Assembly: GCA_965223265.1 (NCBI GenBank)
Contig: OZ244999.1
Coordinates: forward strand, 2,272,001-2,336,000
Source: Planctomycetota bacterium
Lineage (GTDB): Bacteria; Planctomycetota; UBA8108; SXIK01
Reading direction: 5' to 3'
DNA: 64,000 nucleotides
The notes beneath the pieces were generated by a model. That model did no database searches. It saw nothing but the letters and a program-made list of their open reading frames with translations, and had not been told where the DNA came from. Shown here one piece after another: positions 10,582 through 48,562 of the stretch; position 1 is the stretch's first letter; each line of letters begins with the position of its first letter. Position numbers and translations under genes: made by a program.

Positions 10582-13500
10582 ATGCCGATGCAGCGAACCG
10601 CGCTCGTGGTGTGGCTCGTGGTGTGTGGTGGCGGTTCGGACTGGTGCCGTGCAGCCGATTGCAACGCCAATGGGGTAGATGACCAGAGCGACCTGAGCAG
10701 TGAGTTTAGTGTCGACTGCAACCTCAACGGCATCCCTGATGACTGCGAAGTAGCACCGGTGCCGTTTCATGCACTCACGAGCGTGCCGTTCGATGAAAGC
10801 GCGCTTGGAGTTCTGGACGTCGTGGCGTCCGACGTGAACGGCGACAACATCATCGATTTGGTGACCGTTCAGCGCGGGACTCTGTCGCTTAGGCTCGGTC
10901 AGGAGGGGATGCGAGTCGAGAACTACGGCAGTCAGGAGTTCGAGGTTTCGTCGACTGCGTTTCATGCGCAGCTCGGAGACTTCAACTCCGACTCGAACAC
11001 CGATCTGGCGGTCTTTGATAGCTCTTCCGTACAGGTTTTCTCTGGCGATGGAGTCGGTGGGTTGCTACCGGGAGAGTCCATCGTGATCGGAGCGGAGCTT
11101 GGTTCGGGCGCCATAGGGGACATGAATGGTGATGCGCGGAGCGACGTGGTCGCGACTCTGCGCGGCGAAGGCGCTTTGGCGGTCTCTCTGAGCTCAGGAG
11201 CGGGTTTGGGCGTGCCGACGATCTACGCGAGTGGAGGCGATCTTCGCGGTCTCGCGCTCATTGACTTCGATGATGATGGTGCCCTCGACGTTGTCAGCGT
11301 CGACCGGGCTGCCGCCGTGATGGTGTTCCACCGGGGAGACGGCACGGGGCGCTTGGAGGCGGCTGGGCAGCAGCCACTTGCGTTCGAACGACCCGAGCGT
11401 CTTTTGGTCGCCGACGTCGACGGCGACGGTACGGACGATCTGCTCGCGGCAGGCCGACCCGGTGTCGAAGTCTTTCACCGTCAGGGCCCGGGACACTTCG
11501 TTTCCGCCGGGCTGCTTGTGGCCGACATGCAGAACAACACGGGAGTCACCACTCTCGATTACGACGGCGACGGCGACTTGGACCTCGTGGGCTCGTTCGT
11601 CCAGCCCCTTGCTGTCGGTGTGTTTGCAAACCGCGGCGACGGGACGTTCAACGCCGGGGTCCGTACTAACTTTGAAGGGAGGGTCTTTAGCGTTGAAAGT
11701 GCCGACATCGACTCTGATGAGCGCGTCGATGTTCTGCTTCTGTTCTTCGGGCAACCCATTGTGACGGTGCTGTGGAACGACGCCAGCCGCGACACCGGCT
11801 TGTCGTTCGATCCACCGATTGAGTATTCCACCGATGGCGATCCACACACTGTGACGATCGGTGACTTTGACGGCGACGCTGATCTGGATATTCTCACTGG
11901 AAACCAAGACGAGGGCTTGACGCTTCTTCGAGGGCGAGGAGATGGCACGTTCGAACCTCTCGCGGCGCAAGATCGTTACACGCGTGCGAACTACTTTTTT
12001 CTCGCGTCTGACGATTTTGATAGCGACGGCGACCTTGACATCGTAGGTGTTCCACGCAGTGGCATTGGTGTCGGGGTGGGGGCAGGCGAGGAGGGAACTC
12101 TTTTCTACGTCACGAATCAAGGCAACGGCTTGCTTGATCCACCGGTTCAGTTCGCCGTTGGCGCGAATCCGTTTCATATCGGGTTAGGGGATCTCGACGG
12201 GGACTTGAGAACCGATTTGGTAACGTCAAACGTTGCTGGAAACTCGATCTCCGTCCTCCGCAACCAGGGAGCGGGTCTGTTCGGTGAGCGGCAGGACATC
12301 AGCGTTGGCAACGGTCCAGTTGCGGCGGCGGTGGCTGATTTCGACCTGGACGGAATCGCCGATATTGTTGTTGCCAACGAAAACGCGGCTGAACTGTCGA
12401 TCATTCGTGGCCTCGGGGAGAATACCTACAGCGCCGCGCTCGCCCTGCCGCTACCGAGCGCACCCCGTTACGTTGAGGTCGCCGACTTCGATCAAGACGG
12501 ATACGTCGACGTCGTTGTCGCAAACAATGTGTCGAGCGTAACAACCGTCTGGAACGTCCTCGGGTCTCTTGTCCTCGGTGGCACGCATCCGGTGCATGAG
12601 CCGCCGTACTCGCTTTTGACGACGGATCTCAACGCTGACGGGTTGGCGGACCTCGTCACCGTATCTGAGGAGGGCAACAGCATGTCTATGCTGGTCAATG
12701 CCCAAACCCGCGAGTTCACGCTCAGCCGGATCTTCCCGATCGGCGCTGGACCAAGGTTTGCAGCCGCAGGGGATCTCGACGGCAATGGATTGAACGACGT
12801 CATCGGCGCGAATCGGAACGGACGCGACATCACCGTATTTCTAAACCGTTCGGCGTCGCGGCGAACGGTGGAGTTTCTAGAGCGGCTCTGTACGACGTCG
12901 GAGTTCTTCTCGTTGACGGTGCCGTCTCGTCGCGCCGTGCGTGTTGGTAAGTATATCTCCCCGGCCCGTGAGGATCCGGAGCTTCTGCCGACGATTTTTC
13001 AAAACGTAGCGCTGTTCGATCTCCACGAAGATTTTCTCGCGCAGGTGTTTCCCGATCGTTTTGGGGATGTGGTCAGCGATCGGGAGCTTTACAACGAACT
13101 GGTCGGTCGACGTGCGACTCGAGACTACTTTGTTGGCTCCATCTCGCTGCACGTAACCAGCGACGGCCCACTCTACGCCTTTTCGGTCTTCGCCGACACC
13201 GGCTTCGACTTTCGTGAGGAGTTGACGCAAGCAGAGGTGGAGAGCGTCTTCGCAACACTGAGCGAAAAGTTCCATCTGGGACCGTTGGCGTACCAACCGG
13301 CAGGGCAGACGGCTCGAGAGGCTGCAGCCGAATGGAACGGCGTACCGTTTCGGATCTTTGAATCAGACGGCGGCAGCGGATTCACATTTGAGCCCTACAC
13401 GATCGCGGTCGGCTACGGTCGTGTCCGTCTGTTCGACTTGGAGGCGTTCGAGGCGGCGAACCGAAGTGGACGGTTCACCTTTCAGGACATCCTGATTGTC

Positions 13501-16014: not shown

Positions 16015-16037
16015 GGGTGGACGCTGGACGTCGTCGT

Positions 16038-16952
16038 TCACTGGTAGCCTTGATAGATCGTGACGCCTTTGCGTGCTGCATCGACAAGGCATTCCGTGAC
16101 GCGGCGAGCTGAAACCATATAGACAGACACGCCGTGGAATCGCCACTGCATCAGCTCCTGCGGCGACATGAGTCTTTGGAGCACGTCCATACGGCGCGGT
16201 GGCGTCGCTTCGGTCCCGGCTTTCAGCGTGTAGACGTGCTCGGCGCCATCGGTGTCGAGGATCTTAACCGACCTGCCGGGTAAAGAAGCATCCCCGAGAA
16301 CTCCGGGAACCGGAAACTCCTCGCCTAGTAGGCCTTCCGCTGTGTGTACTTGCGTCAGGCTACGAAAGTACTCGGTGCCAATCCCGACGATCACGGCGTC
16401 TTCCTCAGCCATGATTCCAAACGGCGTGCCCTCGCCGCAGTTCGTGTCGACGAGGTGATGGTCGCGGGTGAGGCGTTCGGCCGCCGGGCCCGAAGCGAGC
16501 ACGCTGTGGGTGGGATGGAGGCTCCGCTTGACGCCTTTGTGTCGCCTAAAGATTTCTGTCAGGAGCCCCATCTCGGATGGTGTCCGACGCGCATCAAAAA
16601 CCGGGTCGTCCATCGCCAGAACCCTTCCGTAGGAGAATCCTGGCATGGCGAGCGTGCGATCAGCTCCGCAGAGATCCTGGAGCGCACGGAGTAGATCGAA
16701 CGGACCTTGTTCGTACATCGGGAGTAGGTCGTTGTACGATGAGTGGACCATTAGAATGCTCCACTCTCTGCCCGCCAGCCGTTGCTCGAGTTCGCCGATC
16801 AGGTCGGCTGCCGTGAATGTGCCGTGGAGCCGTCGTATGATCGGCGCGAAACGGTGTTTGAGTGCGAGGATGTCGCTTTTGAGCTTCGTGCGTTTCTCTT
16901 GCGGCAACACCTGCCTGAGCGTGTGGTAGATCAAACGACGCACGACGTTCAC
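16038..16952 (-). CDS. AAC(3)/YokD-family acyltransferase
   Basis: 'ILMVHSS', 'TPSEMGLLTEIFR', 'RSLHPTHSV', 'GTPF', 'TQVHTAE'; GTGA overlap with the upstream fkbH-like gene. Confidence 0.85.
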   Translation of the reverse strand: MNVVRRLIYHTLRQVLPQEKRTKLKSDILALKHRFAPIIRRLHGTFTAADLIGELEQRLAGREWSILMVHSSYNDLLPMYEQGPFDLLRALQDLCGADRTLAMPGFSYGRVLAMDDPVFDARRTPSEMGLLTEIFRRHKGVKRSLHPTHSVLASGPAAERLTRDHHLVDTNCGEGTPFGIMAEEDAVIVGIGTEYFRSLTQVHTAEGLLGEEFPVPGVLGDASLPGRSVKILDTDGAEHVYTLKAGTEATPPRRMDVLQRLMSPQELMQWRFHGVSVYMVSARRVTECLVDAARKGVTIYQGYQ

Positions 16953-31142: not shown

Positions 31143-32002
31143 CCTTCACGTCCCGGACGCCGAGTCCGGAGTCGAATCCGCCGACTGTTGCATCTGTGCC
31201 GGTTCGGAACCTTTTCGATGTCCCTGTCCATGCCGCAACGATGGAGCAGGCACTTTCAATCTGTGAGGAGAGCGTCGCGAATCGCAAGAAGTTGATGATC
31301 GGTGTCGTCAACGCAGCGAAGATCGTCAACATGCGGAAGGATCCACTGCTGCGGCAGTCGGTTGTCGAGTCGGACGTTGTTTTTGCTGACGGCATGTCCA
31401 TCGTGGTGGCAAGTCGCCTTCTTGGTCAGTCACTTCCCGAGCGCGTCACTGGTATCGATCTGTTCGAGCGGCTCCTGAAGCTCGCCGACGAGCGTGGCTA
31501 CGGGGTCTATTTTCTCGGTGCCAAGCACGAAGTTCTTGACGAAGTCGTAGCCCGCGTGCGAGCGACGTACCCCGGCGTCCGCATTGCCGGTAGTCGCGAC
31601 GGATACTTTTCCGAAGACGAGTCAGACAACGTCGCCGCGGCCATCAGCGCGACGCGCCCTGACATGCTGTTCGTCGCCATGAGTCCACCGAAGAAGGAGA
31701 TTTTCCTCGGTCGTTACGGGACCGAGATGGACGTGTCGCTGTGCCATGGCGTCGGCGGTTCGTTTGATGTGTTCGCCGGCAAAACCAAGCGTGCCCCGGC
31801 CTTCTTCCAAAAGCTCTGTCTCGAATGGCTGTACCGCATCATCCAAGAGCCGAAGCGTATGTGGCGACGCTACCTTGTGACGAATTCCGTGTTCATGGGG
31901 CTCTTCGTGCGTGCGTTTTGCCACCGGTGGTTCTGGCCACGGCGCCGAGGCGAAGTGGTTGGGCCGACAGACGACTTTGGTGAGTCGGATGCCAAGTCAT
32001 AG
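31139..32002 (+). CDS. WecB/TagA/CpsF (WecG-type, GT26) glycosyltransferase
   Basis: 'ADGMSIV', 'ERVTGIDL', 'GSRDGYF', 'GVGGSFDV.AG..KRAP', 'LEWLYR..QEP.R.WRRY'; GTGA overlap with wecB. Confidence 0.93.
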   Translation: MTFTSRTPSPESNPPTVASVPVRNLFDVPVHAATMEQALSICEESVANRKKLMIGVVNAAKIVNMRKDPLLRQSVVESDVVFADGMSIVVASRLLGQSLPERVTGIDLFERLLKLADERGYGVYFLGAKHEVLDEVVARVRATYPGVRIAGSRDGYFSEDESDNVAAAISATRPDMLFVAMSPPKKEIFLGRYGTEMDVSLCHGVGGSFDVFAGKTKRAPAFFQKLCLEWLYRIIQEPKRMWRRYLVTNSVFMGLFVRAFCHRWFWPRRRGEVVGPTDDFGESDAKS

Positions 32003-33170: not shown

Positions 33171-33422
33171 TTTTCTTGGCTGTAGGCCCAGATATTGCGC
33201 CGGTCGACAGTGCTGCGTCCAAACACCAACAAAGACCAGCAATCGATGGGCGAGTTCGCTGCGGAGACGGGGTATGGACGCAGCGCGTCCGTGTGAAGAG
33301 GAGGAGTTTTGGGGCCGAGGCGACTTCTGAGAAGGTGCGATTCCGCGTGCACGAGTCGCGACCATGCCTTACGATTGGCGTGGATTCGTGGTTCACTGGG
33401 AGTAAACCGGGACTATTTCACC

Positions 33423-36400: not shown

Positions 36401-37082
36401 GGTATCGCTCGTCGGAGTCGAACTCGCCGCGGTGGGTGTGACGTTTGACGGAATGGATGTGTTCGGTGGCGAGTTGTTGACCTTGGCGCCCGGAGGGTAC
36501 GTGGTCGTTGTCCGTAATGTTGAAGCCTTCACCGCGCGCTACGGCAGCGATGGGATCAGGATCGGCAGTACCTTTGCCGCCGGAAAGACGCTGTCGAACT
36601 CCGAGCAAGAGCTGGCGGTGACCGGGGCGTTTGGCGAGGACTTACTTCGCTTTCGCTACTTGGACGATTGGCAACCCACAACGGACGGCGGCGGCTATTC
36701 GTTAGTGATTCTCGATCCCACCGCGCCGCGAGAGAGCTGGGCCGACGGATCCAGTTGGCGAGCGAGCAGCAGTATCGACGGTTCTCCAGGCCGGGCCGAT
36801 CCGGTGCCGGACAGCCTGCAGCTTCCCGCCGACATCAATCAAGACCGCAAGCTTGATCTCTCCGACCCGATTGCGCTTCTCGCGCATCTGTTCCGGGGCA
36901 TCCAGAGCCGGCCATGCGCGACGGATGAGGCCAACGACTTGCTCAACGACTCCAACGGCGACAGCACGGTCGATCTTGCCGATGCGACCTACACGCTGCT
37001 GCATTTGTTTGCGTCCGGACCACCGCCGACGCTCGGCAGTGGGTGCGTGCCAATCGAGGGCTGCCCGTCTCTATGTGAGTGA
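33423..37082 (+). CDS. Secreted CotH kinase protein with lamin-tail domains, beta-sandwich insert, Fn3-associated/chitobiase-like domains and dockerin
   Basis: Signal peptide; LTD 'VISEFMAAN...DWVE', 'HTNFRLS'; CotH 'RGSST...PKKSWRLE', 'DWIL', 'MRNAFMY', 'GPIWDFDR'; C-terminal 'DINQDRKLDLSDPI'. Confidence 0.88.
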   Translation: MFFRSSRRQRLAVAILLTAVFSFLAQPPACLAQGLVISEFMAANDIALFDSDGDSSDWVEVTNTTNAPLDLDGWSLSDNPQQLRKWVFPPLELAARESLVVFASSKDRRAPGSELHTNFRLSGGGEFLALVEPNGSTIATEFRPEYPQQFAHASYGFPMQVDAVEALGSGQLSYFVPPNDDLGASWIDVGFDDTGWSSGAFPLGFDSKDTPTLVVNTDVGAEMLEASATAYVRIRFDVSDPAGLDALILNIKFDDGFVAYLNGQEVARRHAPLEPTADGAATTEAAENSALFFEPIDISTSIGSLQASGNVLALYALNRSLANPDFFIDAELHGLRLLGVDTSTPRYFEHPTPGWPNSSGAPGVVTEPQFSHVGAAISEPFFLEITAGDGDLIRFTTDRTEPTELSPLYEGPIRIDASMEVRARAFVAGMVPSRTVREVFAMLDADLVDFSSDLPIVVFSSFSGRIEPVEPGDGHLFIFERSGDGRTRLTQPTEFAGAGFMRSRGSSTALHPKKSWRLEIRDGRGNDLNTPVLGMPAESDWILYGAHQIDPSLMRNAFMYELSNQMGRYAVRGRFCEVFLTTVTKDVERADYVGVYSFFEKVKRDPERIDIEALRVDHNTEPEVSGGYILKFDRGGPDDRQIDAGGASPLVVYPESDVVTDAQIDWITAYIDSFAASFDLPGSLDPSLPVLQKPYADFIDVGSWIDHHLLQELSRNSDALSLSTFFYKDRGGKMVKGPIWDFDRAVGAASTGTSVPEGWQCNFAHSWWGQMFRDPLFWQTYKERYLELRTSSWRTANFAAILDQFETEVAEAQARNFDHWGHEVIDHGSWAGEIEYLRGWLADRTAWMDAQFISAPVFSTPPGLVAAGTEVNITVDDSLPGLNCEEFRDIVLPQQGEVYYTTNGADPRGADFAPDPSAVLYTGEPLQVNDDTLFRARTLDGGGWSRLAEAGYVTSLAPLVVTEVMYNPAVKPEDNFGASNFEFVELQNVGDVPVSLVGVELAAVGVTFDGMDVFGGELLTLAPGGYVVVVRNVEAFTARYGSDGIRIGSTFAAGKTLSNSEQELAVTGAFGEDLLRFRYLDDWQPTTDGGGYSLVILDPTAPRESWADGSSWRASSSIDGSPGRADPVPDSLQLPADINQDRKLDLSDPIALLAHLFRGIQSRPCATDEANDLLNDSNGDSTVDLADATYTLLHLFASGPPPTLGSGCVPIEGCPSLCE

Positions 37083-37094
37083 AAGACTGTTTAG

Positions 37095-40000
37095 GTGGAC
37101 TCGATGATGCGTAACCAGGTAGCCGCACTTTTTGTCTTGACGTTGTTCGCGTTGAGCGCGTTCCTTCATGAAGAGCTCCGCGCGGCCGACTGTAATGGTA
37201 ACTTCGTCGAAGATGCCAACGACATCGCGTCCGGCGACAGCCTGGACTGTAACGTCAACAGCGTGCCGGATGAGTGCGAAGGAGCGCCTCCTACGTTCGA
37301 TTCGGCGACGTCGTTGATCGCCCCGGGCGTCGGCTCGGATTCGGTGATTGCTGACTTCGACGGCGACGAGCGACCCGATCTTATGCTCGGATTCCGCGGT
37401 GGTTTCTCTGTTCGACTCAGCAGCACGGGTGGCGATTTTGTCGACCGTGAGGACGTCGTCTACGAGGCCGGCGGGCCGACACGCCGCAGTTGGCGAAGCG
37501 GAGACATCGACGGTGACGGTGATTTGGATCTGGTGACGATCGATTTCGCCGGTTTGCTCTTCTACTTCAACGATGGTGGCGGGGCTTTCAACGAATCGCG
37601 ATCGATCGCCAGCGACGGCGTCGGGCGGTTCGTCGTCGTCGACTTGAATGCGGACGCGGTGGCGGACATCGTCGCGGCCTTCCCGCGGCAGAACATCGTC
37701 GGCGTTTTTACGGCGCTCGGCGGCGGTGACTTTTCCGCGCGGGTCGACCATGCCGTCGGTGACAACCCTGTGGCCATCGTCGCTGGCGAGTTCGATGGTG
37801 TGGCTGGTGCCGACGTTGGCGTGCTCAGCACCGATGCGCGTGTGGTGACGATCTTCGCCAACGACGGCGCTGGCCGGTTGGTGGCTTCGGCCTCGGTTCC
37901 GGTCGCAAGGGACCCGACAGATGTCTTCGTGGCGGAGGATTTCAACGGTGATGGGTTCACCGACTTCGTCGTCGGTAGGAATTCGTTCGCACTTCTCTTC
38001 GAGAATGATGGCGCTGGCGGTTTTGTCGTGCCGCCCCAGGAGCTGACCTCCGACGCGGAGACAGTCGTCGCGATGGGCGCCGGCGACACCGACGGTGATG
38101 GTGACATCGACCTCGTCGCGCGCTTCGTCGAGCCGTCTCGGGAAGTGCAGTTTTATCTCAACCAAGGTGACGGCGTATTCAATCGAGGCCTGTCGGTGAA
38201 TCTTGTGGCTTCGACGACCTCGATTCGCGTTCAGGATCTCAGTGGAGACTCCGTGAGCGATGTGGTGATGGTCGGCTCTACGGTCAAAGAAGTGGTGGTC
38301 CTTTGGAACTCGCAGGATGAGACTCGCTTGCCTTTGTTGACTCCCCAAACCTACGAGGTTCTCGGGGAGCCCCACACGGCCGACCTAGGTGACATGGATG
38401 GCGACGGTGACCTCGATATCGTCACCGGAAACAACAACGACAACACGATCTCGGTCCTCTTGAACCAAGGCGACGGTACGTTTGTGCCGCGGCTAGATCG
38501 ACTTTCGCTGCAGTCGTTCTCGCTCGCATTGGCCGACCTAAACGGCGACGGTGCGCTCGATATCGCATCGGTAAACGCTGCACAGGCTGTTCATATCTTC
38601 TTGAACGACGGAACGTCGACAATGGGTGAGCCGGAGAAATATATCGTCGGTAGCAATGCCTTTCACATTCTTGTCGACGATCTGAACGGCGACGGCTCGG
38701 GTGACGTGGTGACGACGAATCGCGGCAGCAGTTCGATCTCTCTTCTCATGAATGCCGGCGATGGCACATTTTCCGATCGGAATGACTATCCTGTTGGTAG
38801 CGATCCGCGCGCTGCGGTTGCGGCGGATCTCGATCGCGACGGTTCCGTGGACATCGCGGTCGCCAGTCATGGCGCCGGCGCCGTCTATCGTCTTCTCAAC
38901 GACGGAAGCGGAGCTTTGGGAGTCGCGGAACAGTTTCCGATCGCCGATCGACCGAACTTCATCGCCGCCGGTGATTTTGACAACGACGGACATGTCGATC
39001 TGCTCACGGGGAGTGAACTCGGGTCCAGCGTCAATCCGCTCTGGAACGTCGGGGATGGAAGTGCCAACTTCGAGGTTGGCGCACGCGTCCGAACGAATAA
39101 CTCACCCTACTCGCTGACCACGGCCGACTACAACGAAGACGGGTTCGTCGACGTTGTCAGTGTTGCCGAGGTCGCCGATCGCGACGGGAACAGCAGTGTG
39201 GCTCTGATGCTGAACCGCGGCGATCGTGGCTTCAAGGCGCCGCTGAGCTTGCGCGCCGGCGTCGGGCCGCGTTACGTGCTCTCGGGAGACATCGACGCTG
39301 ACGGCGACATCGACATCATCAGCGCCAATCGATTGTCGCAGGACGTCACCGTCTTTCTCAGCGGTGTTGCGGAGAGTGCGACCGTCACGCATTTGAGCGA
39401 AGTCTGCACAGAGTCTGACTATTTCAGTATTTCATTGCCGACGAGTCGCAGCACGAACCGTCGTCGCATTGGCAAGTACGTCGCACCGTCACGCGATGGT
39501 GAGGGGTTGCTTGGCCCTCTGTTTCAAAACGCGAACACGTTCGAGTTGCACGAGGAGTTTCTCGGGACGGTATTCCCCGAGGAGTTTGGTTTTGTGCTGG
39601 AGGACCCGGCGGCGTACGACGACCTTGTGGGCCGGCGCGCAACGCGAGACTACTACGTCGGGACGCTGGATCTCCGCCAGCGTCCTGAGGGTTTTCTCTA
39701 CACGTTCAACATTTTCGCGGACACGGGTTTTGACAGCCGCGAGACGCTGAGCCAAGAGGAAGTGGGTTCGGTGTTCGAGCGTTTGAGCGCGTCTTTTTCG
39801 CTGCGTCCACTGGCGTACGCCCCTGAGACGCAGCTGGCAAAGGCAGCTGCAGAGGAGTGGGAGTCGGCACCGTTTCCGATTTTCTTTGACGACTCCCGTC
39901 CAGCGTTCGACTACGAGGCTTACACGCTGTCTGTGGGCTACGGTCGAGTGCGTTTGCTGACGCTGGAGGAGTTTTCGGAGCTGAACTCAGCGGGCCGTTT

Positions 40001-42581
40001 CACGTTTCAGGACATTTTGGTGATCGACGAGTCGCCTGCAGATATCGAAGGTGTGGTGGGCGGTGTGATCACGGGCACGATTCAGGGCGAGCTGAGCCAC
40101 GTGGCGATCCGCACGGCGCGGCGCGGGACCCCGAACGCTTTTGTAGCGAACGCTCGCGAGGAGTTTTCGCAGTACGCCGGTGAGCTGGTGCGCCTGGAGG
40201 TGTTCCCGGGAGAGCACTTTGTGACGGTGGTGGACGCATCGGAAGCGGAGGAGTTTTGGTCTCAGAACCGCCGGGAGCTGTCGAGCGACCCTGAGATCGA
40301 CACGGAGTACCGCGGTTTTGACGATCTTTTTGAGCTGGACGTGGAGGCTTTCGGTGGTCGCCCTGAGTCTCGCTACGGTGGCAAGGCGTCGAACTTCGCG
40401 CGTCTGCAGCGGGTGCTGACAGGCGAGCTGTCGCAGTATGTGGAGTCCGGTTTTGCGATCCCGGCGTCGTACTACACGGAGTTTATGAGCACGAACGAGG
40501 TAGAGCTTGGCGGGCGGAGTCTGACGTACGAAGAGTGGCTGTTTGAGCTTTTGTCGGACCCGTCGATCGAGAGCGACTCTCAGGCTCGCTTTGAAGCCCT
40601 GGAGGAGTTTCGCTCGTTTGTGCGTGCGAACGGCGCAGTGGATAGCGAACTGGTGTCGCTCCTGGCGTCGCGGATCGAGAGCGTTTTCGGCGATGTTCGG
40701 CGTATGGTGCGGTTTCGCTCGTCGTCGAACGTAGAGGACGCCCTGGAGTTCAACGGTGCGGGCCTTTATGAGTCGACGTCTGTGTGCGCTCAGGACACGC
40801 TGGATCCAGCGAGCCCGGACAGCTCTCACTGCGATGCGAGCCGCAGCAATGAGCGGACGATTGAGCGTGCGCTGAAGAAGGTTTGGGCGAGCCTGTGGAC
40901 GTTCCGGGCGCATGAGGAGCGGACGTTTTACCAGATTGACCCGTCGCGCGCGGCGATGGGTATTTTGGTGTCGCGAGCGTTTTTGGACGAGTTGGCGAAC
41001 GGAGTGGCGTTCACAGGGAATCCACGCGACGTGGGCGACAAGCGCTACGTGGTGACGGCGCAGGCGGGTGAGGCGAGCGTAGTGAGCCCTGAGCCTGGTA
41101 CGACGGTAGAGCGCAGCGTTCTGGAGCTTGACGAGAGCGGTGAGGTGGTGCGGGTGATCCGCAGCCGCGCGTCGTCGCTTGTGGAGCCTGGTGAAGTGGT
41201 GCTGAGCGAGGAGAAGCTTCGCGAGCTTGGCTCCCTGATGTGGCATGTGGATCAGAGGCTGCCGCTGGACCTTGAGGGTCACGCGCGCGAGGAGGTGATC
41301 CTGGACTTTGAGTTCAAGGTGGAGCCTGACGGTTCGTTGGCTGTGAAGCAGGTGCGTCCTTTTTTGATCCCGAGCGCGTCGATCCAGACGCCGACGTTTT
41401 CGCTGGAGGTTCCGGCCGGTACGCGGGTGTGCGGAGTGTTTTCGGCTGAGCGTGTGAACCGTGAGCCTCGTGTGGAGTATGAGACGAAGAGCGTTGTGGA
41501 GCTGCGGGCGGGAGTGTACGAGCTGGCGACGTCAGGCGGAGTGATCGAGGCGGACTTGATCGAATCGCTACGCTTTGGCTCGGAGCGCTCGCTAGCGCAG
41601 CCGCTGGGCCCCGGGCGCTTCACTGTGACGCCGATCCCCGAGGAGGGTAGCCGGACGAACTACCGCTTCAGCTACGAGCAGGAGTTCGAGCTGGCAGCGG
41701 ATGGGAGCACGTACGCCGGGGGGCGTCTTTTGGTGCAGATTCTGCAGCTGGACTACCTCGGTCGCGGTGAGGTGGCGCTGGACGGCGCGAAGGTGCTGGA
41801 CGATGAGTTTTTGACGTTCGATCTGGTGATGGGGGCCTCAGTGGACGGTGAGCCTCTGGTGGGCTACTCCTCGTGCAGTTACCGTGAGCTACCTCGCTGG
41901 GAGCTGTCGGTGGATCTTGGCGGTGGTTCGCGGGTGGATCTGGTGGAGCGGTTTTTGCCGTCAGAGAACCTGGCGGCGACAGGCCCCGCGAGCTTGGTGG
42001 AGGCGGTGGTGGAGCTTGGTGGAGTGCGCCAATCGACGCGCGACTACTGGCGCCTGGTGTACACGGCGCGTCGTCACAACCTGGATGCTCGCTACTGGGT
42101 GGAGCTGGATCCGTTGGTGGAGGTTGAGGTGCAGGGCGAGCCGCGGGCGGTTCGGGTGGTGGAGCTTTTGGCGCCGGAGCCGCCGATCGGTGAGGATGTG
42201 GACGTGGGCTCGGCGCGGGTGCGTTACCTCGATGAGAACCTGGAGGTGCTCGTGGACCGGGGAGTGGTTGGCTTCGCGAAGTCGGAGCGGGAGGTGGAGC
42301 CCGGAGAGCGCTTTGTGCGCGGCGACGTGGAGGGCGACGGTCGAGTGGATGTGAGCGACGCGATCGCGCTGCTCAGTTATCTGTTCAAGCGCGGTGCGGT
42401 GCCGAGCTGTCAGAAGGCGGCCGACGCCGACGACAGCGGTCGCCTGAACGTCAGCGACGCGGTGACAGTGCTGCTGTCGCTCTTTGCCGGCACCGGGCCG
42501 CTGCCGCCGCCGGCGAGCGTTTGCGGCGAAGACCCTACCAGCGACGCCCTCTCGTGTGAGACGTTTGCCCTGTGCGAGTAA
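37095..42581 (+). CDS. Secreted FG-GAP + His-swivel + dikinase ATP-grasp + dockerin protein (paralog 2)
   Basis: Same architecture as 10582-16014: 'GELSHVAIRTARRGTPN', 'YGGKASN', 'RFRSSSNVED', 'KQVRP', 'RGDVEGDGRVDVSDA'. True start may be ATG 37104 or 37107. Confidence 0.85.
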   Translation: MDSMMRNQVAALFVLTLFALSAFLHEELRAADCNGNFVEDANDIASGDSLDCNVNSVPDECEGAPPTFDSATSLIAPGVGSDSVIADFDGDERPDLMLGFRGGFSVRLSSTGGDFVDREDVVYEAGGPTRRSWRSGDIDGDGDLDLVTIDFAGLLFYFNDGGGAFNESRSIASDGVGRFVVVDLNADAVADIVAAFPRQNIVGVFTALGGGDFSARVDHAVGDNPVAIVAGEFDGVAGADVGVLSTDARVVTIFANDGAGRLVASASVPVARDPTDVFVAEDFNGDGFTDFVVGRNSFALLFENDGAGGFVVPPQELTSDAETVVAMGAGDTDGDGDIDLVARFVEPSREVQFYLNQGDGVFNRGLSVNLVASTTSIRVQDLSGDSVSDVVMVGSTVKEVVVLWNSQDETRLPLLTPQTYEVLGEPHTADLGDMDGDGDLDIVTGNNNDNTISVLLNQGDGTFVPRLDRLSLQSFSLALADLNGDGALDIASVNAAQAVHIFLNDGTSTMGEPEKYIVGSNAFHILVDDLNGDGSGDVVTTNRGSSSISLLMNAGDGTFSDRNDYPVGSDPRAAVAADLDRDGSVDIAVASHGAGAVYRLLNDGSGALGVAEQFPIADRPNFIAAGDFDNDGHVDLLTGSELGSSVNPLWNVGDGSANFEVGARVRTNNSPYSLTTADYNEDGFVDVVSVAEVADRDGNSSVALMLNRGDRGFKAPLSLRAGVGPRYVLSGDIDADGDIDIISANRLSQDVTVFLSGVAESATVTHLSEVCTESDYFSISLPTSRSTNRRRIGKYVAPSRDGEGLLGPLFQNANTFELHEEFLGTVFPEEFGFVLEDPAAYDDLVGRRATRDYYVGTLDLRQRPEGFLYTFNIFADTGFDSRETLSQEEVGSVFERLSASFSLRPLAYAPETQLAKAAAEEWESAPFPIFFDDSRPAFDYEAYTLSVGYGRVRLLTLEEFSELNSAGRFTFQDILVIDESPADIEGVVGGVITGTIQGELSHVAIRTARRGTPNAFVANAREEFSQYAGELVRLEVFPGEHFVTVVDASEAEEFWSQNRRELSSDPEIDTEYRGFDDLFELDVEAFGGRPESRYGGKASNFARLQRVLTGELSQYVESGFAIPASYYTEFMSTNEVELGGRSLTYEEWLFELLSDPSIESDSQARFEALEEFRSFVRANGAVDSELVSLLASRIESVFGDVRRMVRFRSSSNVEDALEFNGAGLYESTSVCAQDTLDPASPDSSHCDASRSNERTIERALKKVWASLWTFRAHEERTFYQIDPSRAAMGILVSRAFLDELANGVAFTGNPRDVGDKRYVVTAQAGEASVVSPEPGTTVERSVLELDESGEVVRVIRSRASSLVEPGEVVLSEEKLRELGSLMWHVDQRLPLDLEGHAREEVILDFEFKVEPDGSLAVKQVRPFLIPSASIQTPTFSLEVPAGTRVCGVFSAERVNREPRVEYETKSVVELRAGVYELATSGGVIEADLIESLRFGSERSLAQPLGPGRFTVTPIPEEGSRTNYRFSYEQEFELAADGSTYAGGRLLVQILQLDYLGRGEVALDGAKVLDDEFLTFDLVMGASVDGEPLVGYSSCSYRELPRWELSVDLGGGSRVDLVERFLPSENLAATGPASLVEAVVELGGVRQSTRDYWRLVYTARRHNLDARYWVELDPLVEVEVQGEPRAVRVVELLAPEPPIGEDVDVGSARVRYLDENLEVLVDRGVVGFAKSEREVEPGERFVRGDVEGDGRVDVSDAIALLSYLFKRGAVPSCQKAADADDSGRLNVSDAVTVLLSLFAGTGPLPPPASVCGEDPTSDALSCETFALCE
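39405..42581 (+). repeat. 3177-bp near-identical direct repeat, copy A (3' module of paralog 2)
   Basis: Matches 45386-48562 at a constant offset of 5981 with no net indel; only scattered, clustered substitutions. Confidence 0.95.
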
Positions 42582-42705
42582 TTCCGAGGAACACGGGGGC
42601 GGTGTGAACGAGACTACCGTTCCTGCGACGCACTCCGATTCCCGCACGTCGCCAGATAGCCGGCAGGCGCTCACTCTGCCTGTAGCGCGTGACGCGCAAC
42701 TGTCC

Positions 42706-43002
42706 GAGGCTGTGAAGTTTTTGGAGCCTGCCAGCGTAACTCATGGTCACGCTCCACGGTCCACGGTCAGTTCACGTCCGGAACGGCACACGGCGTGTGC
42801 CTGCTACTATCAAGACGTCGCCACCACGATCTTCAAAGTAGCAGGCACACGCCGTGTGCCGTTCCGGCATTGAGCGCCAAGCGTGACCGTGAATGTGACC
42901 GTGAATTACGTTCGAGCGCCCCAAGAACTTCACAGCCTCGCCGTGTGCCATCCGAGGAGGACCGTGGGTTACGACGGCACGTTCAAAAAACTCACAACCT
43001 CT
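42706..43002. repeat. Composite palindromic element: MITE-like ~42-bp arms enclosing a GTAG-REP pair
   Basis: Left arm CGAGGCTGTGAAGTTTTTGGAGCCTGCCAGCGTAACTCATGGT (42706-42747) has inverted counterparts at ~42898-42940 and 42961-43002. Confidence 0.7.
42778..42867. repeat. Inverted pair of GTAG-type REP sequences
   Basis: Perfect 31-bp IR: CCGGAACGGCACACGGCGTGTGCCTGCTACT (42778-42808) / AGTAGCAGGCACACGCCGTGTGCCGTTCCGG (42837-42867); each unit is GTAG plus an internal hairpin. Confidence 0.85.
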
Positions 43003-43084: not shown

Positions 43085-46000
43085 ATGACCCGCAAAGGAC
43101 CGATTGTTTGGATTCTCGCCGGCCTGCTTGGTTTGGGCCTTGGTGCGCCTGTGCGCGCAGTCGACTGTAATGGCAACGGGCTCGAGGACGCCGAAGATCT
43201 TTCGGCGCAGACGAGTGAGGACTGTAACGACAACGCGATCCCAGATGAATGCGAAGGCCCGCCGCTCGTTTTTAGTTCGACGCTGCGGCTGGAGGTCGAC
43301 AACGTCGCGCGGCAGATCATGCCGGGCGATTTCGACCTGGACGGACGGCAGGATTTCGCCGTCGGCACGTCGCGGTCGCTTGTTCTCAAGCTCAACGATG
43401 GTAGCGGCACAGCGGAAAACTACCCGGAAACCATCGTCAGCGTCGACAGTCTTGGCCTCAGAGCCTGGGCGCACGGCCATTTCGACGCGGACGACAGCAC
43501 CGATTTCGTCGCCCTGGACACACAAGGACCGTGGGTGCTCCTCGGCGACGGAGTTGGGGGAGTCCAGGCGCCGCTCAGGTTGGAGCAGGCGAGCGGAGGC
43601 AACCAACTGGCCTGCGGCGACCTTTCGGGCGACGGTGTCGACGATCTGGTCATCGTCACCAGTCGCCCGCAGGCACTGGTCACCGTCCTCGTGGCGGCGG
43701 GCGACGGAAGTTTTGGCCCCGCCGCAAGTCTCCTCGATGGACTGGGGCCAACGGCGGTCGGGCTTGGAGACCTCGACGGCGACGGTGCGCTCGATCTCGC
43801 TGTCCTGCACCGATCCCTCGCAGCTGTCTCTGTCGTCATCAACGACGGCGCGGGCACGCTCGTACCGGCCGCGCCGCTGACGATTGGCGGCGACAACCCT
43901 GAGACGCTTGCTGTGGTCGACGTCGACGCCGACGGTCTTGCGGATCTCGCCGTCGGCGATCGCGTCGGTTTCCGCCTCTATCTCAATCAGGGTGGCACCT
44001 TCAGCGATGCCATTGACCTGGTACACGCCGGCGCGGAGACTTCCGCGCTGACAGCTGGCGACTTGAACGGCGACGGCAACGTCGATCTTGTCGGCGCACT
44101 CCGCGTTCCGCGGAGCGTCGCTATCTTCACCGGCACAGGAGATGGTCGCTTCAACAGCGGTTTTGGACCGAGCCTCGATACCTCCAGTGTGGGCCTCGCG
44201 GTCGCAGACGTTGACAGCGACGCGGCGATGGACGTCATCACCATTCCGTTCGGCCTCAAGCGCGTCACAGCATTTCGAAACGACGTTCAGAGCCGCTCAC
44301 TGACGGTCGACCTGGGCTCGCCCATCACGTACGTCGCCGAAGGCAGACCTCACACCGGGGAGGCGCTGGACTTCGACGGTGACGGCGACGTGGACGTCGT
44401 CACCGGCAATAGCTTCGACCAGACGATTTCCGTGTTGAGGAACCAGGGTGACGGTACCTTTGTCGCTACCGCCCTGCGGTTGTCAGTGACCGCCTTTTCG
44501 GTTGCTGCGGGTGATTACGACAGCGACGGCGACGCCGACCTGGGTGTCGTCGGACATGGAAATCGGATTATCCTTTTTGAAAACAACGGCAACGCTGAGT
44601 TCGACATGGCGGGCGGGATCCCGCTGGGACAAACGGCGTTTCACGTTGCCGCCGCCGACGTGACGGGAGATGGCCGCGTCGAGTTCATAGCAGCGCTTCG
44701 CGGCGGTGACGCGGTCGCTATCGCTCAGAACACAGGTGGCGGCTCGTTTGGTCAGACGAAGCGGTTTGTTGTCGGGCGTGCGCCACGTGCTGTCGCAGCT
44801 GGCGATTTCGACGGTGACGGCCTTGTCGACATCGTGACGGCAAACGAGAATTCAGCGGACCTGTCGGTGCTTTTCAACGACGGCGTTGACGGTGAAACGG
44901 TGGAGTTTCTCTCGCCTCTACAGGTCCCGCTGGCGTCAAGCCCCTTCTTCGTCGCTGCTGGAGACGTCGACGACGACGGTCATGTCGACATCATCGCTTC
45001 GAGCGAGGTGGGTCGAACCGTTTCGGTGCTGTGGAGCGATGGCGCTGGTGGGTTCTTACCGCCGGCGACTTGGGATCTCGTGCACCAGCCCTACTCGCAC
45101 ATCGCGGTGGACCTCACCGCTGATGGGCTCCTTGAGATCATCAGCGTCGCCGAGATTTCCGACCGCACCGAGAGCACGACTGTTGTGCTTGAGAACCTCA
45201 GTGGTCGCACATTCGGACCGTCGAAGCGATTCCGCGTCGGCTCGGGGCCTCGATTCGTCGTTGCGGCAGACTTCGACGATGACGAATCTCTCGACCTCAT
45301 GAGCCTCAACCGAGGCTCGAGCGATGTGACGGTGCTCCTCAACGAGTCGCGCCCGTCCTCCGAGCTCGACTTCCTCGAGACAGTTTGCACAGAGTCTGAC
45401 TATTTCAGCATTTCATTGCCAACGAGTCGTAGGACGAGTCGTCGTCGCATTGGCAAGTACGTCGCACCGGCACGCGATGGTGAGGGGTTGCTTGGCCCAC
45501 TGTTTCAAAACGCGAACACGTTCGAGCTGCACGAGGAGTTTCTCGGGACGGTATTCCCGGAGGAGTTTGGTTTTGTTCTGGAGGACCCGGCGGCCTACGA
45601 CGACCTGGTGGGGCGCCGCGCAACGCGTGACTACTACGTCGGGACGCTGGATCTCCGGCAGCGCCCAGAAGGTTTTCTCTACACGTTCAACATTTTCGCG
45701 GACACGGGTTTTGACAGCCGCGAGACGCTGAGCCAAGAGGAAGTGGGTTCGGTGTTCGAGCGTTTGAGCGCGTCTTTTTCGCTGCGTCCACTGGCGTACG
45801 CCCCTGAGACGCAGCTGGCAAAGGCAGCTGCAGAGGAGTGGGAGTCGGCACCGTTTCCGATTTTCTTTGACGACTCCCGTCCAGCGTTCGACTACGAGGC
45901 TTACACGCTGTCTGTGGGCTACGGTCGAGTGCGTTTGCTGACGCTGGAGGAGTTTTCGGAGCTGAACTCAGTGGGCCGTTTCACGTTTCAGGACATTTTG

Positions 46001-48562
46001 GTGATCGACGAGTCGCCTGCAGATATCGAAGGTGTGGTGGGCGGTGTGATCACGGGAACGATTCAGGGCGAGCTGAGCCACGTGGCGATCCGCACGGCGC
46101 GGCGCGGGACCCCGAACGCTTTTGTAGCGAACGCTCGCGAGGAGTTTTCGCAGTACGCCGGTGAGCTGGTGCGCCTGGAGGTGTTCCCGGGAGAGCACTT
46201 TGTGACGGTGGTGGACGCATCGGAAGCGGAGGAGTTTTGGTCTCAGAACCGCCGGGAGCTGTCGAGCGACCCTGAGATCGACACGGAGTACCGCGGTTTT
46301 GACGATCTTTTTGAGCTGGACGTGGAGGCTTTCGGTGGTCGCCCTGAGTCTCGCTACGGTGGCAAGGCGTCGAACTTCGCGCGTCTGCAGCGGGTGCTGA
46401 CAGGCGAGCTGTCGCAGTATGTGGAGTCCGGTTTTGCGATCCCGGCGTCGTACTACACGGAGTTTATGAGCACGAACGAGGTAGAGCTTGGCGGGCGGAG
46501 TCTGACGTACGAAGAGTGGCTGTTTGAGCTTTTGTCGGACCCGGCGATCGAGAGCGACTCTCAGGCTCGCTTTGAAGCCCTGGAGGAGTTTCGCTCGTTT
46601 GTGCGAGCGAACGGGGTAGTGGATAGCGAACTGGTGTCGCTCCTGGCGTCGCGGATCGAGAGCGTGTTCGGAGATGTTCGACGTATGGTGCGTTTTCGCT
46701 CTTCGTCGAACGTAGAGGACGCCCTGGAGTTCAACGGTGCGGGTCTTTATGAGTCGACGTCTGTGTGCGCTCAGGACACGCTGGATCCAGCGAGTCCGGA
46801 GAGCTCTCACTGCGATGCGAGCCGCAGCAATGAGCGGACGATTGAGCGTGCGCTGAAGAAGGTTTGGGCGAGCCTTTGGACGTTCCGGGCGCATGAGGAG
46901 CGGACGTTTTACCAGATTGACCCGTCGCGCGCGGCGATGGGTATTTTGGTGTCGCGTGCGTTTTTGGACGAGTTGGCGAACGGCGTGGCGTTCACTGGGA
47001 ATCCCCGCGATGTGGGGGACAAGCGCTACGTGGTGACGGCGCAGGCGGGTGAGGCGAGCGTAGTGAGCCCTGAGCCTGGTACGACGGTAGAGCGCAGCGT
47101 TCTGGAGCTTGACGAGAGCGGTGAGGTGGTGCGGGTGATCCGCAGCCGCGCGTCGTCGCTTGTGGAGCCTGGTGAAGTGGTGCTGAGCGAGGAGAAGCTT
47201 CGCGAGCTTGGCTCCCTGATGTGGCATGTGGATCAGAGGCTGCCGCTGGACCTTGAGGGTCACGCGCGCGAGGAGGTGATCCTGGACTTTGAGTTCAAGG
47301 TGGAGCCTGACGGTTCGTTGGCTGTGAAGCAGGTGCGTCCTTTTTTGATCCCGAGCGCGTCGATCCAGACGCCGACGTTTTCGCTGGAGGTTCCGGCCGG
47401 TACGCGGGTGTGCGGAGTGTTTTCCGCTGAGCGTGTGAACCGTGAGCCTCGTGTGGAGTATGAGACGAAGAGCGTTGTGGAGCTGCGGGCGGGAGTGTAC
47501 GAGCTGGCGACGTCAGGCGGAGTGATCGAGGCGGACTTGATCGAATCGCTACGCTTTGGCTCGGAGCGCTCGCTAGCGCAGCCGCTGGGCCCTGGGCGCT
47601 TCACTGTGACGCCGATCCCCGAGGAGGGTAGCCGGACGAACTACCGCTTCAGCTACGAGCAGGAGTTCGAGCTGGCAGCGGATGGGAGCACGTACGCCGG
47701 GGGGCGTCTTTTGGTGCAGATTCTGCAGCTGGACTACCTCGGTCGCGGTGAGGTGGCGCTGGACGGCGCGAAGGTGCTGGACGATGAGTTTTTGACGTTC
47801 GATCTGGTGATGGGGGCCTCAGTGGACGGTGAGCCTCTGGTAGGCTACTCCTCGTGCAGTTACCGTGAGCTACCTCGCTGGGAGCTGTCGGTGGATCTTG
47901 GCGGTGGTTCGCGGGTGGATCTGGTGGAGCGGTTTTTGCCGTCAGAGAACCTAGCGGCGACAGGCCCCGCGAGCTTGGTGGAGGCGGTGGTGGAGCTTGG
48001 TGGAGTGCGCCAATCGACGCGCGACTACTGGCGCCTGGTGTACACGGCGCGTCGTCACAACCTGGATGCTCGCTACTGGGTGGAGCTGGATCCGTTGGTG
48101 GAGGTTGAGGTGCAGGGCGAGCCGCGGGCGGTTCGGGTGGTGGAGCTTTTGGCGCCGGAGCCGCCGATCGGTGAGGATGTGGACGTGGGTTCTGCGCGGG
48201 TGCGGTACCTCGATGAGAACCTGGAGGTGCTCGTGGACCGGGGAGTGGTTGGCTTCGCGAAGTCGGAGCGGGAGGTGGAGCCCGGAGAGCGCTTTGTGCG
48301 CGGCGACGTGGAGGGTGACGGTCGAGTGGACGTGAGCGACGCGATCGCGCTGCTCAGTTATCTGTTCAAGCGCGGTGCGGCGCCGAGCTGTCAGAAGGCG
48401 GCCGACGCCGACGACAGCGGTCGCCTGAACGTCAGCGACGCGGTGACAGTGCTGCTGTCGCTCTTTGCCGGCACCGGGCCGCTGCCGCCGCCGGCGAGCG
48501 TTTGCGGCGAAGACCCTACCAGCGACGCCCTCTCGTGTGAGACGTTTGCCCTTTGTGAATAG
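43085..48562 (+). CDS. Secreted FG-GAP + His-swivel + dikinase ATP-grasp + dockerin protein (paralog 3)
   Basis: Signal peptide 'MTRKGPIVWILAGLLGLGLGAPVRA'; divergent FG-GAP region; C-terminal ~1058 aa almost identical to paralog 2. Confidence 0.85.
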   Translation: MTRKGPIVWILAGLLGLGLGAPVRAVDCNGNGLEDAEDLSAQTSEDCNDNAIPDECEGPPLVFSSTLRLEVDNVARQIMPGDFDLDGRQDFAVGTSRSLVLKLNDGSGTAENYPETIVSVDSLGLRAWAHGHFDADDSTDFVALDTQGPWVLLGDGVGGVQAPLRLEQASGGNQLACGDLSGDGVDDLVIVTSRPQALVTVLVAAGDGSFGPAASLLDGLGPTAVGLGDLDGDGALDLAVLHRSLAAVSVVINDGAGTLVPAAPLTIGGDNPETLAVVDVDADGLADLAVGDRVGFRLYLNQGGTFSDAIDLVHAGAETSALTAGDLNGDGNVDLVGALRVPRSVAIFTGTGDGRFNSGFGPSLDTSSVGLAVADVDSDAAMDVITIPFGLKRVTAFRNDVQSRSLTVDLGSPITYVAEGRPHTGEALDFDGDGDVDVVTGNSFDQTISVLRNQGDGTFVATALRLSVTAFSVAAGDYDSDGDADLGVVGHGNRIILFENNGNAEFDMAGGIPLGQTAFHVAAADVTGDGRVEFIAALRGGDAVAIAQNTGGGSFGQTKRFVVGRAPRAVAAGDFDGDGLVDIVTANENSADLSVLFNDGVDGETVEFLSPLQVPLASSPFFVAAGDVDDDGHVDIIASSEVGRTVSVLWSDGAGGFLPPATWDLVHQPYSHIAVDLTADGLLEIISVAEISDRTESTTVVLENLSGRTFGPSKRFRVGSGPRFVVAADFDDDESLDLMSLNRGSSDVTVLLNESRPSSELDFLETVCTESDYFSISLPTSRRTSRRRIGKYVAPARDGEGLLGPLFQNANTFELHEEFLGTVFPEEFGFVLEDPAAYDDLVGRRATRDYYVGTLDLRQRPEGFLYTFNIFADTGFDSRETLSQEEVGSVFERLSASFSLRPLAYAPETQLAKAAAEEWESAPFPIFFDDSRPAFDYEAYTLSVGYGRVRLLTLEEFSELNSVGRFTFQDILVIDESPADIEGVVGGVITGTIQGELSHVAIRTARRGTPNAFVANAREEFSQYAGELVRLEVFPGEHFVTVVDASEAEEFWSQNRRELSSDPEIDTEYRGFDDLFELDVEAFGGRPESRYGGKASNFARLQRVLTGELSQYVESGFAIPASYYTEFMSTNEVELGGRSLTYEEWLFELLSDPAIESDSQARFEALEEFRSFVRANGVVDSELVSLLASRIESVFGDVRRMVRFRSSSNVEDALEFNGAGLYESTSVCAQDTLDPASPESSHCDASRSNERTIERALKKVWASLWTFRAHEERTFYQIDPSRAAMGILVSRAFLDELANGVAFTGNPRDVGDKRYVVTAQAGEASVVSPEPGTTVERSVLELDESGEVVRVIRSRASSLVEPGEVVLSEEKLRELGSLMWHVDQRLPLDLEGHAREEVILDFEFKVEPDGSLAVKQVRPFLIPSASIQTPTFSLEVPAGTRVCGVFSAERVNREPRVEYETKSVVELRAGVYELATSGGVIEADLIESLRFGSERSLAQPLGPGRFTVTPIPEEGSRTNYRFSYEQEFELAADGSTYAGGRLLVQILQLDYLGRGEVALDGAKVLDDEFLTFDLVMGASVDGEPLVGYSSCSYRELPRWELSVDLGGGSRVDLVERFLPSENLAATGPASLVEAVVELGGVRQSTRDYWRLVYTARRHNLDARYWVELDPLVEVEVQGEPRAVRVVELLAPEPPIGEDVDVGSARVRYLDENLEVLVDRGVVGFAKSEREVEPGERFVRGDVEGDGRVDVSDAIALLSYLFKRGAAPSCQKAADADDSGRLNVSDAVTVLLSLFAGTGPLPPPASVCGEDPTSDALSCETFALCE
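45386..48562 (+). repeat. 3177-bp near-identical direct repeat, copy B (3' module of paralog 3)
   Basis: See 39405-42581. Confidence 0.95.

Follow-up and report, generated by a model that had tools for sequence, protein, structure and literature searches.

Can a dikinase be built to work outside the cell? The question is raised by a 64,000-nucleotide stretch (the window) of the genome of a Planctomycetota bacterium (contig OZ244999.1, positions 2,272,001 to 2,336,000), which carries three giant open reading frames (ORFs), P0001, P0002 and P0003, each with a signal-peptide-like start, a long FG-GAP repeat region, a dikinase-like module and a C-terminal dockerin. In the textbook view ATP-dependent phosphorylation ends at the cytoplasmic membrane, and to our knowledge the His-dependent dikinases PPDK, PEP synthase, RPH, HpeHI and GWD/PWD all reside inside the cell or a plastid, the type having so far been described only intracellularly. 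Signal-like or lipoprotein-like N-termini in most members checked, together with fully conserved catalytic residues, run against that view. We conclude, with moderate confidence, that the three proteins are members of a family, 35 strong in this genome, of modular His-dikinases that are exported, bear a dockerin, act outside the cytoplasm and owe their aim to exchangeable binders; of the architecture and the export we are much surer.

The original prediction, made from the letters of the window, described three paralogs of about 1800 amino acids, and all three are real ORFs of the forward strand (Table 1). The many FG-GAP repeats that it noted are found by Pfam/HMMER as 12, 11 and 11 FG-GAP_3 stretches in P0001, P0002 and P0003, respectively (200–205 bits), a tandem repetition that predicts an FG-GAP/VCBS beta-propeller. 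In the same order PPDK_N (PF01326; cut-off 27 bits) scores 51.4, 62.0 and 61.6. For Dockerin_1 (cut-off 22.9) the scores are 22.6, 24.9 and 42.0 bits, so that the expected dockerin clears the cut-off in P0002 and P0003 and falls just below it in P0001; the sequences carry the double Ca-loop module of a putative type I dockerin, and the family profile matches solved dockerins. The pyruvate-binding barrel had been reported as missing, and the Pfam scan matched no PEP/pyruvate barrel family in the three window proteins or in 46 relatives. GWD1_pHisD responded among the three in P0001 alone (19.1 bits, under its cut-off of 27), and NCBIfam matches to PEP synthase, rifampin phosphotransferase and PigC/RedH were faint and far under their cut-offs.

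While the count of three paralogs holds for the window, the family is larger. A tblastn search with the module of P0002 (residues 755–1735, ~980 residues) against the genome from which the window comes, a single contig of 9,179,496 bases, gave 36 places, 35 spanning the module and one a fragment. Thirty-three of these paralogs are ORFs of 1794–1902 aa and two, of ~1070 aa, lack the propeller; several stand in tandem arrays, and together they make up about 2% of the 9-Mb genome. A HMMER scan of 1.84 billion cluster representatives found 2529 matching clusters (50% identity) at E<=1e-3, of which 1942 reach <=1e-10 and 869 reach <=1e-30. The forms are diverse: ~1800 aa with propeller, ~1070 aa for the module alone, ~700 aa (module residues ~10–670), ~1400 aa, 3336 aa and 6419 aa. 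Species-representative genomes yielded at least 567 related stretches, from which 79 loci were kept, nearly all metagenome-assembled. By record titles these loci are mostly from Planctomycetota, with others from Verrucomicrobiales, Omnitrophota, Kiritimatiellae, Myxococcota/Deltaproteobacteria and Chloroflexota. Across a sample of the phylum 23 of 301 genomes matched, four of them by the dockerin end only, and within the window's own order full-length matches occurred in all eight sampled genomes besides the window's. Public names of the proteins are only 'FG-GAP-like repeat-containing', 'VCBS repeat-containing', 'PEP/pyruvate-binding domain-containing' and 'hypothetical'. Our literature search found no publication on this family, or on extracellular, secreted, periplasmic or bacterial dikinases of its kind; as far as that search shows, the family is previously undescribed. 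An ORF of the genome (C1:8070875-8071999, reverse strand, 374 aa) has a dockerin match followed by no more of the module than its N-domain portion (query residues 13–177), and may be a remnant or else a protein in which the N-domain stands alone.

Structure prediction places a swivel and an ATP-grasp where the original prediction had expected them. An AlphaFold2 model of the module, built on a 56-sequence alignment, reached a pLDDT of 91.2 and a pTM of 0.77, and a second model covering module residues 1–305 reached a pLDDT of 94.4 (module numbers plus 754 give P0002 numbers). The modelled domains follow one another as N-domain (~170 aa, mixed alpha/beta), His domain, ATP-grasp and beta-rich C-domain (limits in Table 1), and no TIM barrel is seen. 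The ATP-grasp is closest to that of rifampin phosphotransferase RPH (5hv1; Z 28.1, rmsd 2.5 A, 294 residues), with further matches to HpeI (Z 20.6) and maize PPDK (Z 13.5); by Foldseek the E-values are 7.5e-16 for RPH and 1.1e-10 for PEP synthase. In the second model the His domain resembles that of RPH (Z 11.3; 100 residues at rmsd 2.6 A), and further matches are the PEP-utiliser-like domain of a pyruvate kinase (Z 10.4), Enzyme I (Z 10.3) and the PPDK carrier domain (Z 7.6). Found together are a PPDK_N-type ATP-grasp, a phospho-His swivel whose predicted acceptor His begins a short helix, and conserved ATP/Mg-site residues.

The two outer domains gave less. The best fold match of the N-domain, Stay-Green (7y5y, Z 4.3), is uninformative, the fold search having barely sampled this part; an Atlas match to a Chlorophyta cluster, 65% of which carries GWD1_pHisD, scored 0.75, under the trusted level. 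Because no fold match is informative, its role as the candidate acceptor-substrate site is a guess, made from position and conservation. The C-domain has no Pfam match in the 46 relatives and no Atlas match, and its fold matches (Z 6.5–7.6: the pericyclase lipocalin-like barrels 7dmo, Z 7.6, and 6kbc, Z 6.5, and other small beta domains) are in a commonly seen range.

Are the catalytic residues kept? The three phospho-His codons fall exactly where they had been predicted (Table 1), and this His is invariant in all 35 paralogs and in 56 of 56 aligned relatives from several phyla. The PEP-synthase-type ATP-grasp motifs, described beforehand as intact, are all present in P0002: GGK (K1097), RFRSSSNVED (R1206, R1208, E1214, D1215) and DFEFK...KQVRP (D1404, E1406, Q1419, R1421). 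An alignment to the PEP synthase profile pairs GGK, RSS..ED and D.E...Q.RP with the enzyme's own motifs; the assignment of each conserved position to a named PPDK residue is presumed. In P0002 numbering G1095, K1097, R1206, R1208, S1209, E1214, D1215, E1406, K1408, K1418, Q1419 and R1421 are invariant in all 56 relatives, as is His819 of the N-domain, and PPDK_N exceeds its cut-off in 46 of 46 relatives. Two cysteines, Cys1231 and Cys1246, are invariant family-wide and sit in a stretch with no aligned counterpart in PEP synthase; Cys1446 and Cys1594 are invariant among the paralogs. Such conserved Cys pairs fit a putatively extracytoplasmic protein.

This conservation bears on the notion that the proteins are adhesins or structural surface proteins in which the dikinase module survives as a relic without activity or serves to sense nucleotides. 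An adhesin would indeed resemble them in propeller, dockerin and Ca-loop motifs, and ATP is scarce outside cells. However, 112 module positions are invariant in the 35 paralogs, covering every catalytic residue checked, the same residues are invariant across phyla, and conservation along the proteins peaks in the catalytic domains, all of which makes a dead module highly improbable.

The signal peptides of the original prediction were judged by hydrophobicity. A hydrophobic 10-residue N-terminal stretch (Kyte-Doolittle mean >= 2.08) is present in 35/35 paralogs, and in the 33 long ones it is followed at once by a conserved A-x-DC(N/D)xNG, a context like that of a cleavage site. Among shorter relatives 43 of 54 pass the same crude rule, most failures being truncated or having doubtful starts. 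The ~700-aa forms have, by eye, a lipobox-like Cys right after the hydrophobic stretch in 10 of 11 cases. Partner domains point the same way: by Pfam the relatives carry dockerin (16/46), LTD (5/46) and FG-GAP, further partners in the family are Lcl_C, BNR_2, CHB_HEX_C_1, Fn3_assoc, beta-helix, fn3 and TSP3, and every domain fused to the module is of extracellular type. The dockerin serves as a general tag in this genome: scoring 150 of 481 candidates gave at least 109 matches at E<=1e-3. Three cohesin matches exceed the cut-off. On these grounds we infer that the paralogs act outside the cytoplasm.

Could the proteins be cytoplasmic, their hydrophobic stretches being misread starts? Export is judged here from hydrophobicity, from motifs resembling cleavage sites, from Cys pairs and from the types of domain, and several ORF starts are uncertain. 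That the stretch precedes the A-x-DCN motif in 33/33 long paralogs, that relatives in other phyla have lipobox-like signals, that Cys pairs are conserved and that partner domains are exclusively extracellular in type all argue against misreading, and we find a cytoplasmic location scarcely credible.

If the enzymes are exported, what aims them? Median pairwise identity among the 33 long paralogs is 30% in the propeller, 46% in the N-domain, 56% in the His domain, 58% in the ATP-grasp, 39% in the C-domain and 55% in the dockerin. The contrast is starkest in three tandem arrays (the window pair P0002/P0003, three genes at 4.62–4.64 Mb and two at 8.27 Mb), where modules are 98–99% identical and propellers 34–41%. 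In all three arrays the switch falls at P0002-equivalent residues ~779–796, a domain junction; in the window pair DNA identity climbs there from ~45–60% to 98–100% (Table 1). Near-saturated divergence beside near-identity indicates recombination or gene conversion confined to the module, not simple duplication. The original prediction had called the propellers interchangeable, which these arrays bear out, as do relatives that carry other binders (LTD, Lcl_C, BNR_2 or beta-helix). We read the ~700-residue propeller region as a putative binder. The gap between P0002 and P0003 contains, at 42705-42940, nested inverted repeats with inner arms of 38 nt (95% complementary, 14 nt apart) and outer arms of 46 nt; BLASTN finds 246 matching pieces genome-wide, which identifies the repeats as a palindromic element of the REP- or MITE-like kind, dispersed over the genome.

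Which known dikinase is the family most like? In layout it resembles the glucan water dikinases GWD1 and PWD of plants and algae (EC 2.7.9.4, 2.7.9.5), as had been proposed: the module model shows the same order of binder, acceptor-side domain, His domain and ATP-grasp that is described for GWD (PMC13553574), with a short link between acceptor-side and His domains and, on our reading of the propeller, a large binder to bring the enzyme to a polymer. GWD1_pHisD (PF22973) is moreover the sole Pfam His-domain model that responds, in 14 of 46 relatives at E<0.1 and in five genome paralogs against none of 14 control genomes, though all matches stay below the cut-off (best 24.4 bits against 27). The differences are substantial. 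CBM45 and CBM20 match neither the three proteins nor the 46 relatives by Pfam, FG-GAP, LTD and other binders standing instead. The GWD central domain has ~440 residues and is all-helical, with 20 helices, in the account given in PMC13553574, whereas the domain before the His domain here has ~170 and is mixed alpha/beta. The family has in addition a beta-rich C-domain and dockerin, and is bacterial and apparently exported, where GWD is plastidial or cytosolic. The family is therefore not GWD, whose defining domains are absent; the likeness is one of layout only.

By fold the nearest relatives are the ATP-grasps of RPH of Listeria (PDB 5HV1) and of the two-component HpeHI (PDB 9GOJ), with the same presumed swivel mechanism; HpeHI is moreover split into subunits, as the C-domain is in some loci of the family. 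RPH runs in the order ATP-grasp, rifampin-binding substrate domain, His domain, and both are cytoplasmic, with small-molecule substrates. For the family no match to the rifampin-binding domain is reported, and the RPH equivalog NF041857 scores 15.7–17.2 against a cut-off of 999. Since the order is permuted and those enzymes are cytoplasmic and act on small molecules, the family is not RPH/HpeHI. Its members might still be small-molecule dikinases of that kind, which in the periplasm or on the cell surface would phosphorylate a hydroxyl of an antibiotic, phenolic or other small compound, with the C-domain as ligand pocket. The fold ranking would fit, HpeHI being described as a scavenging small-molecule dikinase (PMC12167813), as would the weak resemblance of the C-domain to pericyclase barrels. 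Yet the RPH likeness does not discriminate, because the GWD ATP domain also aligns best with RPH according to the published comparison (PMC13553574); the barrel matches are in the commonly seen Z range; variation of the specificity type lies in the 700-residue propeller and not in the catalytic module; and a small-molecule enzyme faces the same ATP problem. We think this alternative unlikely.

With PEP synthase and PPDK the family shares the ATP-site motifs and the phospho-His carrier fold. PEP synthase (8a8e) is the best sequence-profile match among solved structures (E 1.4e-13), and a single-sequence search of solved structures found only PEP synthase (E 0.076). The C-terminal PEP/pyruvate TIM barrel is absent, the order is permuted, PEP_synth TIGR01418 scores 15.5–26.7 against a cut-off of 739.75, and PEP-utilizers PF00391 matched none of the 46 relatives and no paralog, yet six other genes of the same genome. 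Lacking the barrel, the family is not PEP synthase/PPDK.

A further comparison is with giant Omnitrophota surface proteins ('Archaeovorins'), in which PPDK_N ranks among the top 20 most frequent domains by the legend of supplementary Figure S1 (10.1101/2023.11.21.568195). This is the one published account of PPDK_N in large surface proteins that our search turned up. Both concern PPDK_N in very large proteins of the PVC group, regions of the Archaeovorins being predicted extracellular, and our family has Omnitrophota members and 3336- and 6419-aa forms. The preprint discusses whether such regions are extracellular and reads PPDK_N as pyruvate/PEP interconversion; it lists the domain only and describes no module of His domain and ATP-grasp, not this family and no propeller fusions. 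Another possibility is that the enzyme finds its ATP at its place of work, which could be a prey or competitor cell, entered or attacked from outside, or a compartment that holds prey, with the propeller picking the target cell. The module's need for ATP would be answered; the family occurs in lineages that include known predators (Myxococcota, Omnitrophota); PPDK_N is frequent in the giant surface proteins, which are discussed in a context of predation (10.1101/2023.11.21.568195); and a variable binder on a constant enzyme is typical of targeting proteins. However, the scanned window proteins and relatives have no translocation or pore-forming domain, the dockerin, as a general genome tag, suggests retention on the producer, the lipoprotein forms would be tethered to the producer's own membrane, and nothing shows that this organism preys. 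We therefore hold such targeting to be decidedly unlikely.

The C-domain, lacking from the ~700-aa forms, appears to be a functional partner of the core. A profile search of all ORFs found stand-alone C-domain ORFs in four of the 79 loci (L039, L046, L076 and L077). In the last two the ORF lies just downstream of the core, has a lipobox-like N-terminus and aligns with the C-domain (module residues 681–971) at an hhalign probability of 99.4% (E 4.3e-21, 261 columns). Joined to the core in some genomes and encoded apart in others, the C-domain appears from this distribution to contribute to the work of the enzyme. A 400-aa lipoprotein beside four Myxococcales forms was considered as a part of the module and rejected (hhalign probability 0.3%).

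By analogy with PPDK, PEP synthase, RPH, HpeHI and GWD, the ATP-grasp would bind ATP and the swivel His (His1002 in P0002) would take the beta-phosphate, the gamma-phosphate passing to water to leave AMP and Pi. The His domain would then swing to the N-domain and hand its phosphate to a hydroxyl of a substrate held there and brought near by the propeller. Dikinase activity is thus predicted from the known enzymes, and the substrate is presumably an extracellular macromolecule, with a glycan or other surface polymer the likeliest. A bolder and rather doubtful reading is that this is the first family of extracytoplasmic His-dikinases, exported by bacteria of several phyla and produced by this planctomycete in 35 versions that differ in their propellers. 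By phosphorylating extracellular polymers, whether insoluble or on surfaces, the enzymes would open them to attack, as an extracellular counterpart of starch phosphorylation by GWD. Were it true, ATP or some other phospho-donor would have to be supplied on the far side of the cytoplasmic membrane. As for the extracytoplasmic dikinase first proposed, its computable parts (export signals, folds, residues, order, exchange) hold up, and its activity and substrate class are still deductions.

Several points weigh against exported dikinases aimed by binders. ATP is not expected outside the cytoplasm, and no phospho-donor supply is evident in the locus; this ATP paradox is the main argument against the proposal and also the main reason for interest in it. 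Activity and localisation of the family are predicted from sequences and models, and a look for RNA evidence of the gene found none. The N-domain has no informative fold match (best Stay-Green, as above), and the nearest solved ATP-grasp relatives, RPH and HpeI, act on small molecules, not polymers. The neighbours of the 79 loci and 35 paralogs include no cross-phylum conserved neighbourhood that would point to a substrate. A link to the CotH kinases described below is not significant either: 4/35 paralogs lie within 3 kb of a CotH site where 2.2 are expected (P 0.20), and 9/35 within 10 kb where 4.8 are expected (P 0.07). If the activity is real, phosphorylation would join the ways in which bacteria treat extracellular matter, the family would offer a testable case for the origin of ATP there and a set of natural binder-enzyme fusions, and a bacterial enzyme with the GWD domain order would be at hand for comparison with the eukaryotic starch dikinases.

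Table 1. Features of the three putative dikinase genes in the window (positions from the first nucleotide of the window)
Feature	Position	Strand	Description
P0001 (paralog 1)	10582-16014	+	1810 aa ORF
P0001 predicted layout			Signal peptide; 2 DCN Ca-loop motifs; FG-GAP propeller region aa ~60-750; N-domain aa ~760-930; His swivel domain aa ~935-1042; ATP-grasp aa ~1067-1422; beta-rich C-domain aa ~1430-1720; dockerin aa 1726-1779; domain limits carried over from the P0002 model, registered on the invariant His
P0001 predicted phospho-acceptor His998 codon	13573-13575	+	
P0002 (paralog 2)	37095-42581	+	1828 aa; GTG start, ATG 3 codons downstream
P0002 FG-GAP propeller region	37272-39359	+	aa ~60-755; variable part, 35% identical to that of P0003
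P0002/P0003 putative recombination or gene-conversion boundary	39300-39460	+	DNA identity ~45-60% to 98-100% at propeller/module junction
P0002 N-domain	39384-39896	+	Module residues 10-180, alpha/beta; candidate acceptor-substrate site; family-invariant His819 (codon 39549), conserved R791, K794, R851
P0002 phospho-His swivel domain	39909-40232	+	Module residues 185-292; predicted acceptor His1002 (codon 40098-40100) begins helix 248-256 of the model
P0002 ATP-grasp nucleotide-binding domain	40305-41372	+	Module residues 317-672; K1097, R1206, R1208, D1404, E1406, Q1419, R1421; family-specific insert with invariant Cys1231/Cys1246
P0002 beta-rich C-domain	41394-42299	+	Module residues 680-981; conserved C1446, C1594, H1661, N1662
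P0002 dockerin	42321-42470	+	Pfam Dockerin_1, aa 1743-1792; Cys-rich tail after
P0003 (paralog 3)	43085-48562	+	1825 aa; ~99% identical to P0002 from ~residue 780 on; propeller different
P0003 predicted phospho-acceptor His999 codon	46079-46081	+	

Do the surroundings of the genes say more? A CotH kinase gene stands directly before P0002 and another follows a 919-aa ORF. The two CotH proteins (window 33309-37082 and 51561-55064) are large, with LTD, CHB_HEX_C_1 and Fn3_assoc domains, accessory domains that also accompany the dikinase module in the 3336-aa relative. The CotH proteins are a second type of ATP-using enzyme on extracellular-looking scaffolds; the genome has 55 CotH matches, and 53 CotH sites were used in the proximity test given above. 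The intervening 919-aa ORF (window 48706-51465) has a signal-peptide-like start, no Pfam family and, by eye, two dockerin-like Ca-loop repeats near its C-terminus.

Directly after the ~700-aa form lies, in three related loci, a gene for an outer-membrane-type protein of ~370 aa (L071:9986-11086 and L050:10203-11318) or 489 aa (L062:2289-3758). One copy scores 28.3 bits on Porin_O_P (phosphate-selective porin; cut-off 20.9), with which the other two share 45% and 37% identity. This porin-like neighbour of the minimal form is a lead only. It could be enlisted, along with the abundance of CotH in the genome, for a reaction running the other way or from another donor: the N-domain would bind an energy-rich phospho-compound and the module would make ATP from AMP, as PPDK in reverse, or a non-ATP donor would be used, in the service of phosphate scavenging or of ATP for extracytoplasmic kinases such as CotH. 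PPDK chemistry is reversible, and the conserved His/Arg/Lys cluster of the N-domain suits a phosphate group. Still, no candidate donor is known, the porin link is confined to the three related loci, the CotH proximity is not significant, and reversal from a simple phosphoester is energetically implausible; we judge this very unlikely.

Two other associations were considered and rejected. Genes for UDP-GlcNAc 2-epimerase occur at window 9139-10359 and within 30042-33170, the second followed by WecG/TagA-type and group-1 glycosyltransferase genes just upstream of the cluster of CotH and dikinase genes; among the neighbours of all 35 paralogs this epimerase occurs in the window only. A conserved operon was likewise dismissed, the neighbours of the 79 loci showing lineage-local synteny only, with genes for sugar-phosphate isomerase-like, esterase, aldo-keto reductase, thioredoxin-TPR and deacetylase proteins. 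The neighbours of the 35 paralogs are ordinary planctomycete families (PSCyt2/PSD1, DUF1501, sulfatase).

Some minor features remain. About 1 kb upstream of paralog 11 (2538867-2544467) an 825-aa ORF carries a classical PEP-utilizers domain (C1:2537600-2537812, 103 bits); it is probably a housekeeping enzyme, and its adjacency may be chance. Beside P0001, on the reverse strand, lies an aminoglycoside 3-N-acetyltransferase-family gene (window 16038-16952), and the same strand bears a class-A-type beta-lactamase-family gene (57219-58223), each assigned by family match only, and a DDE_Tnp_1 transposase gene (4549-5817).

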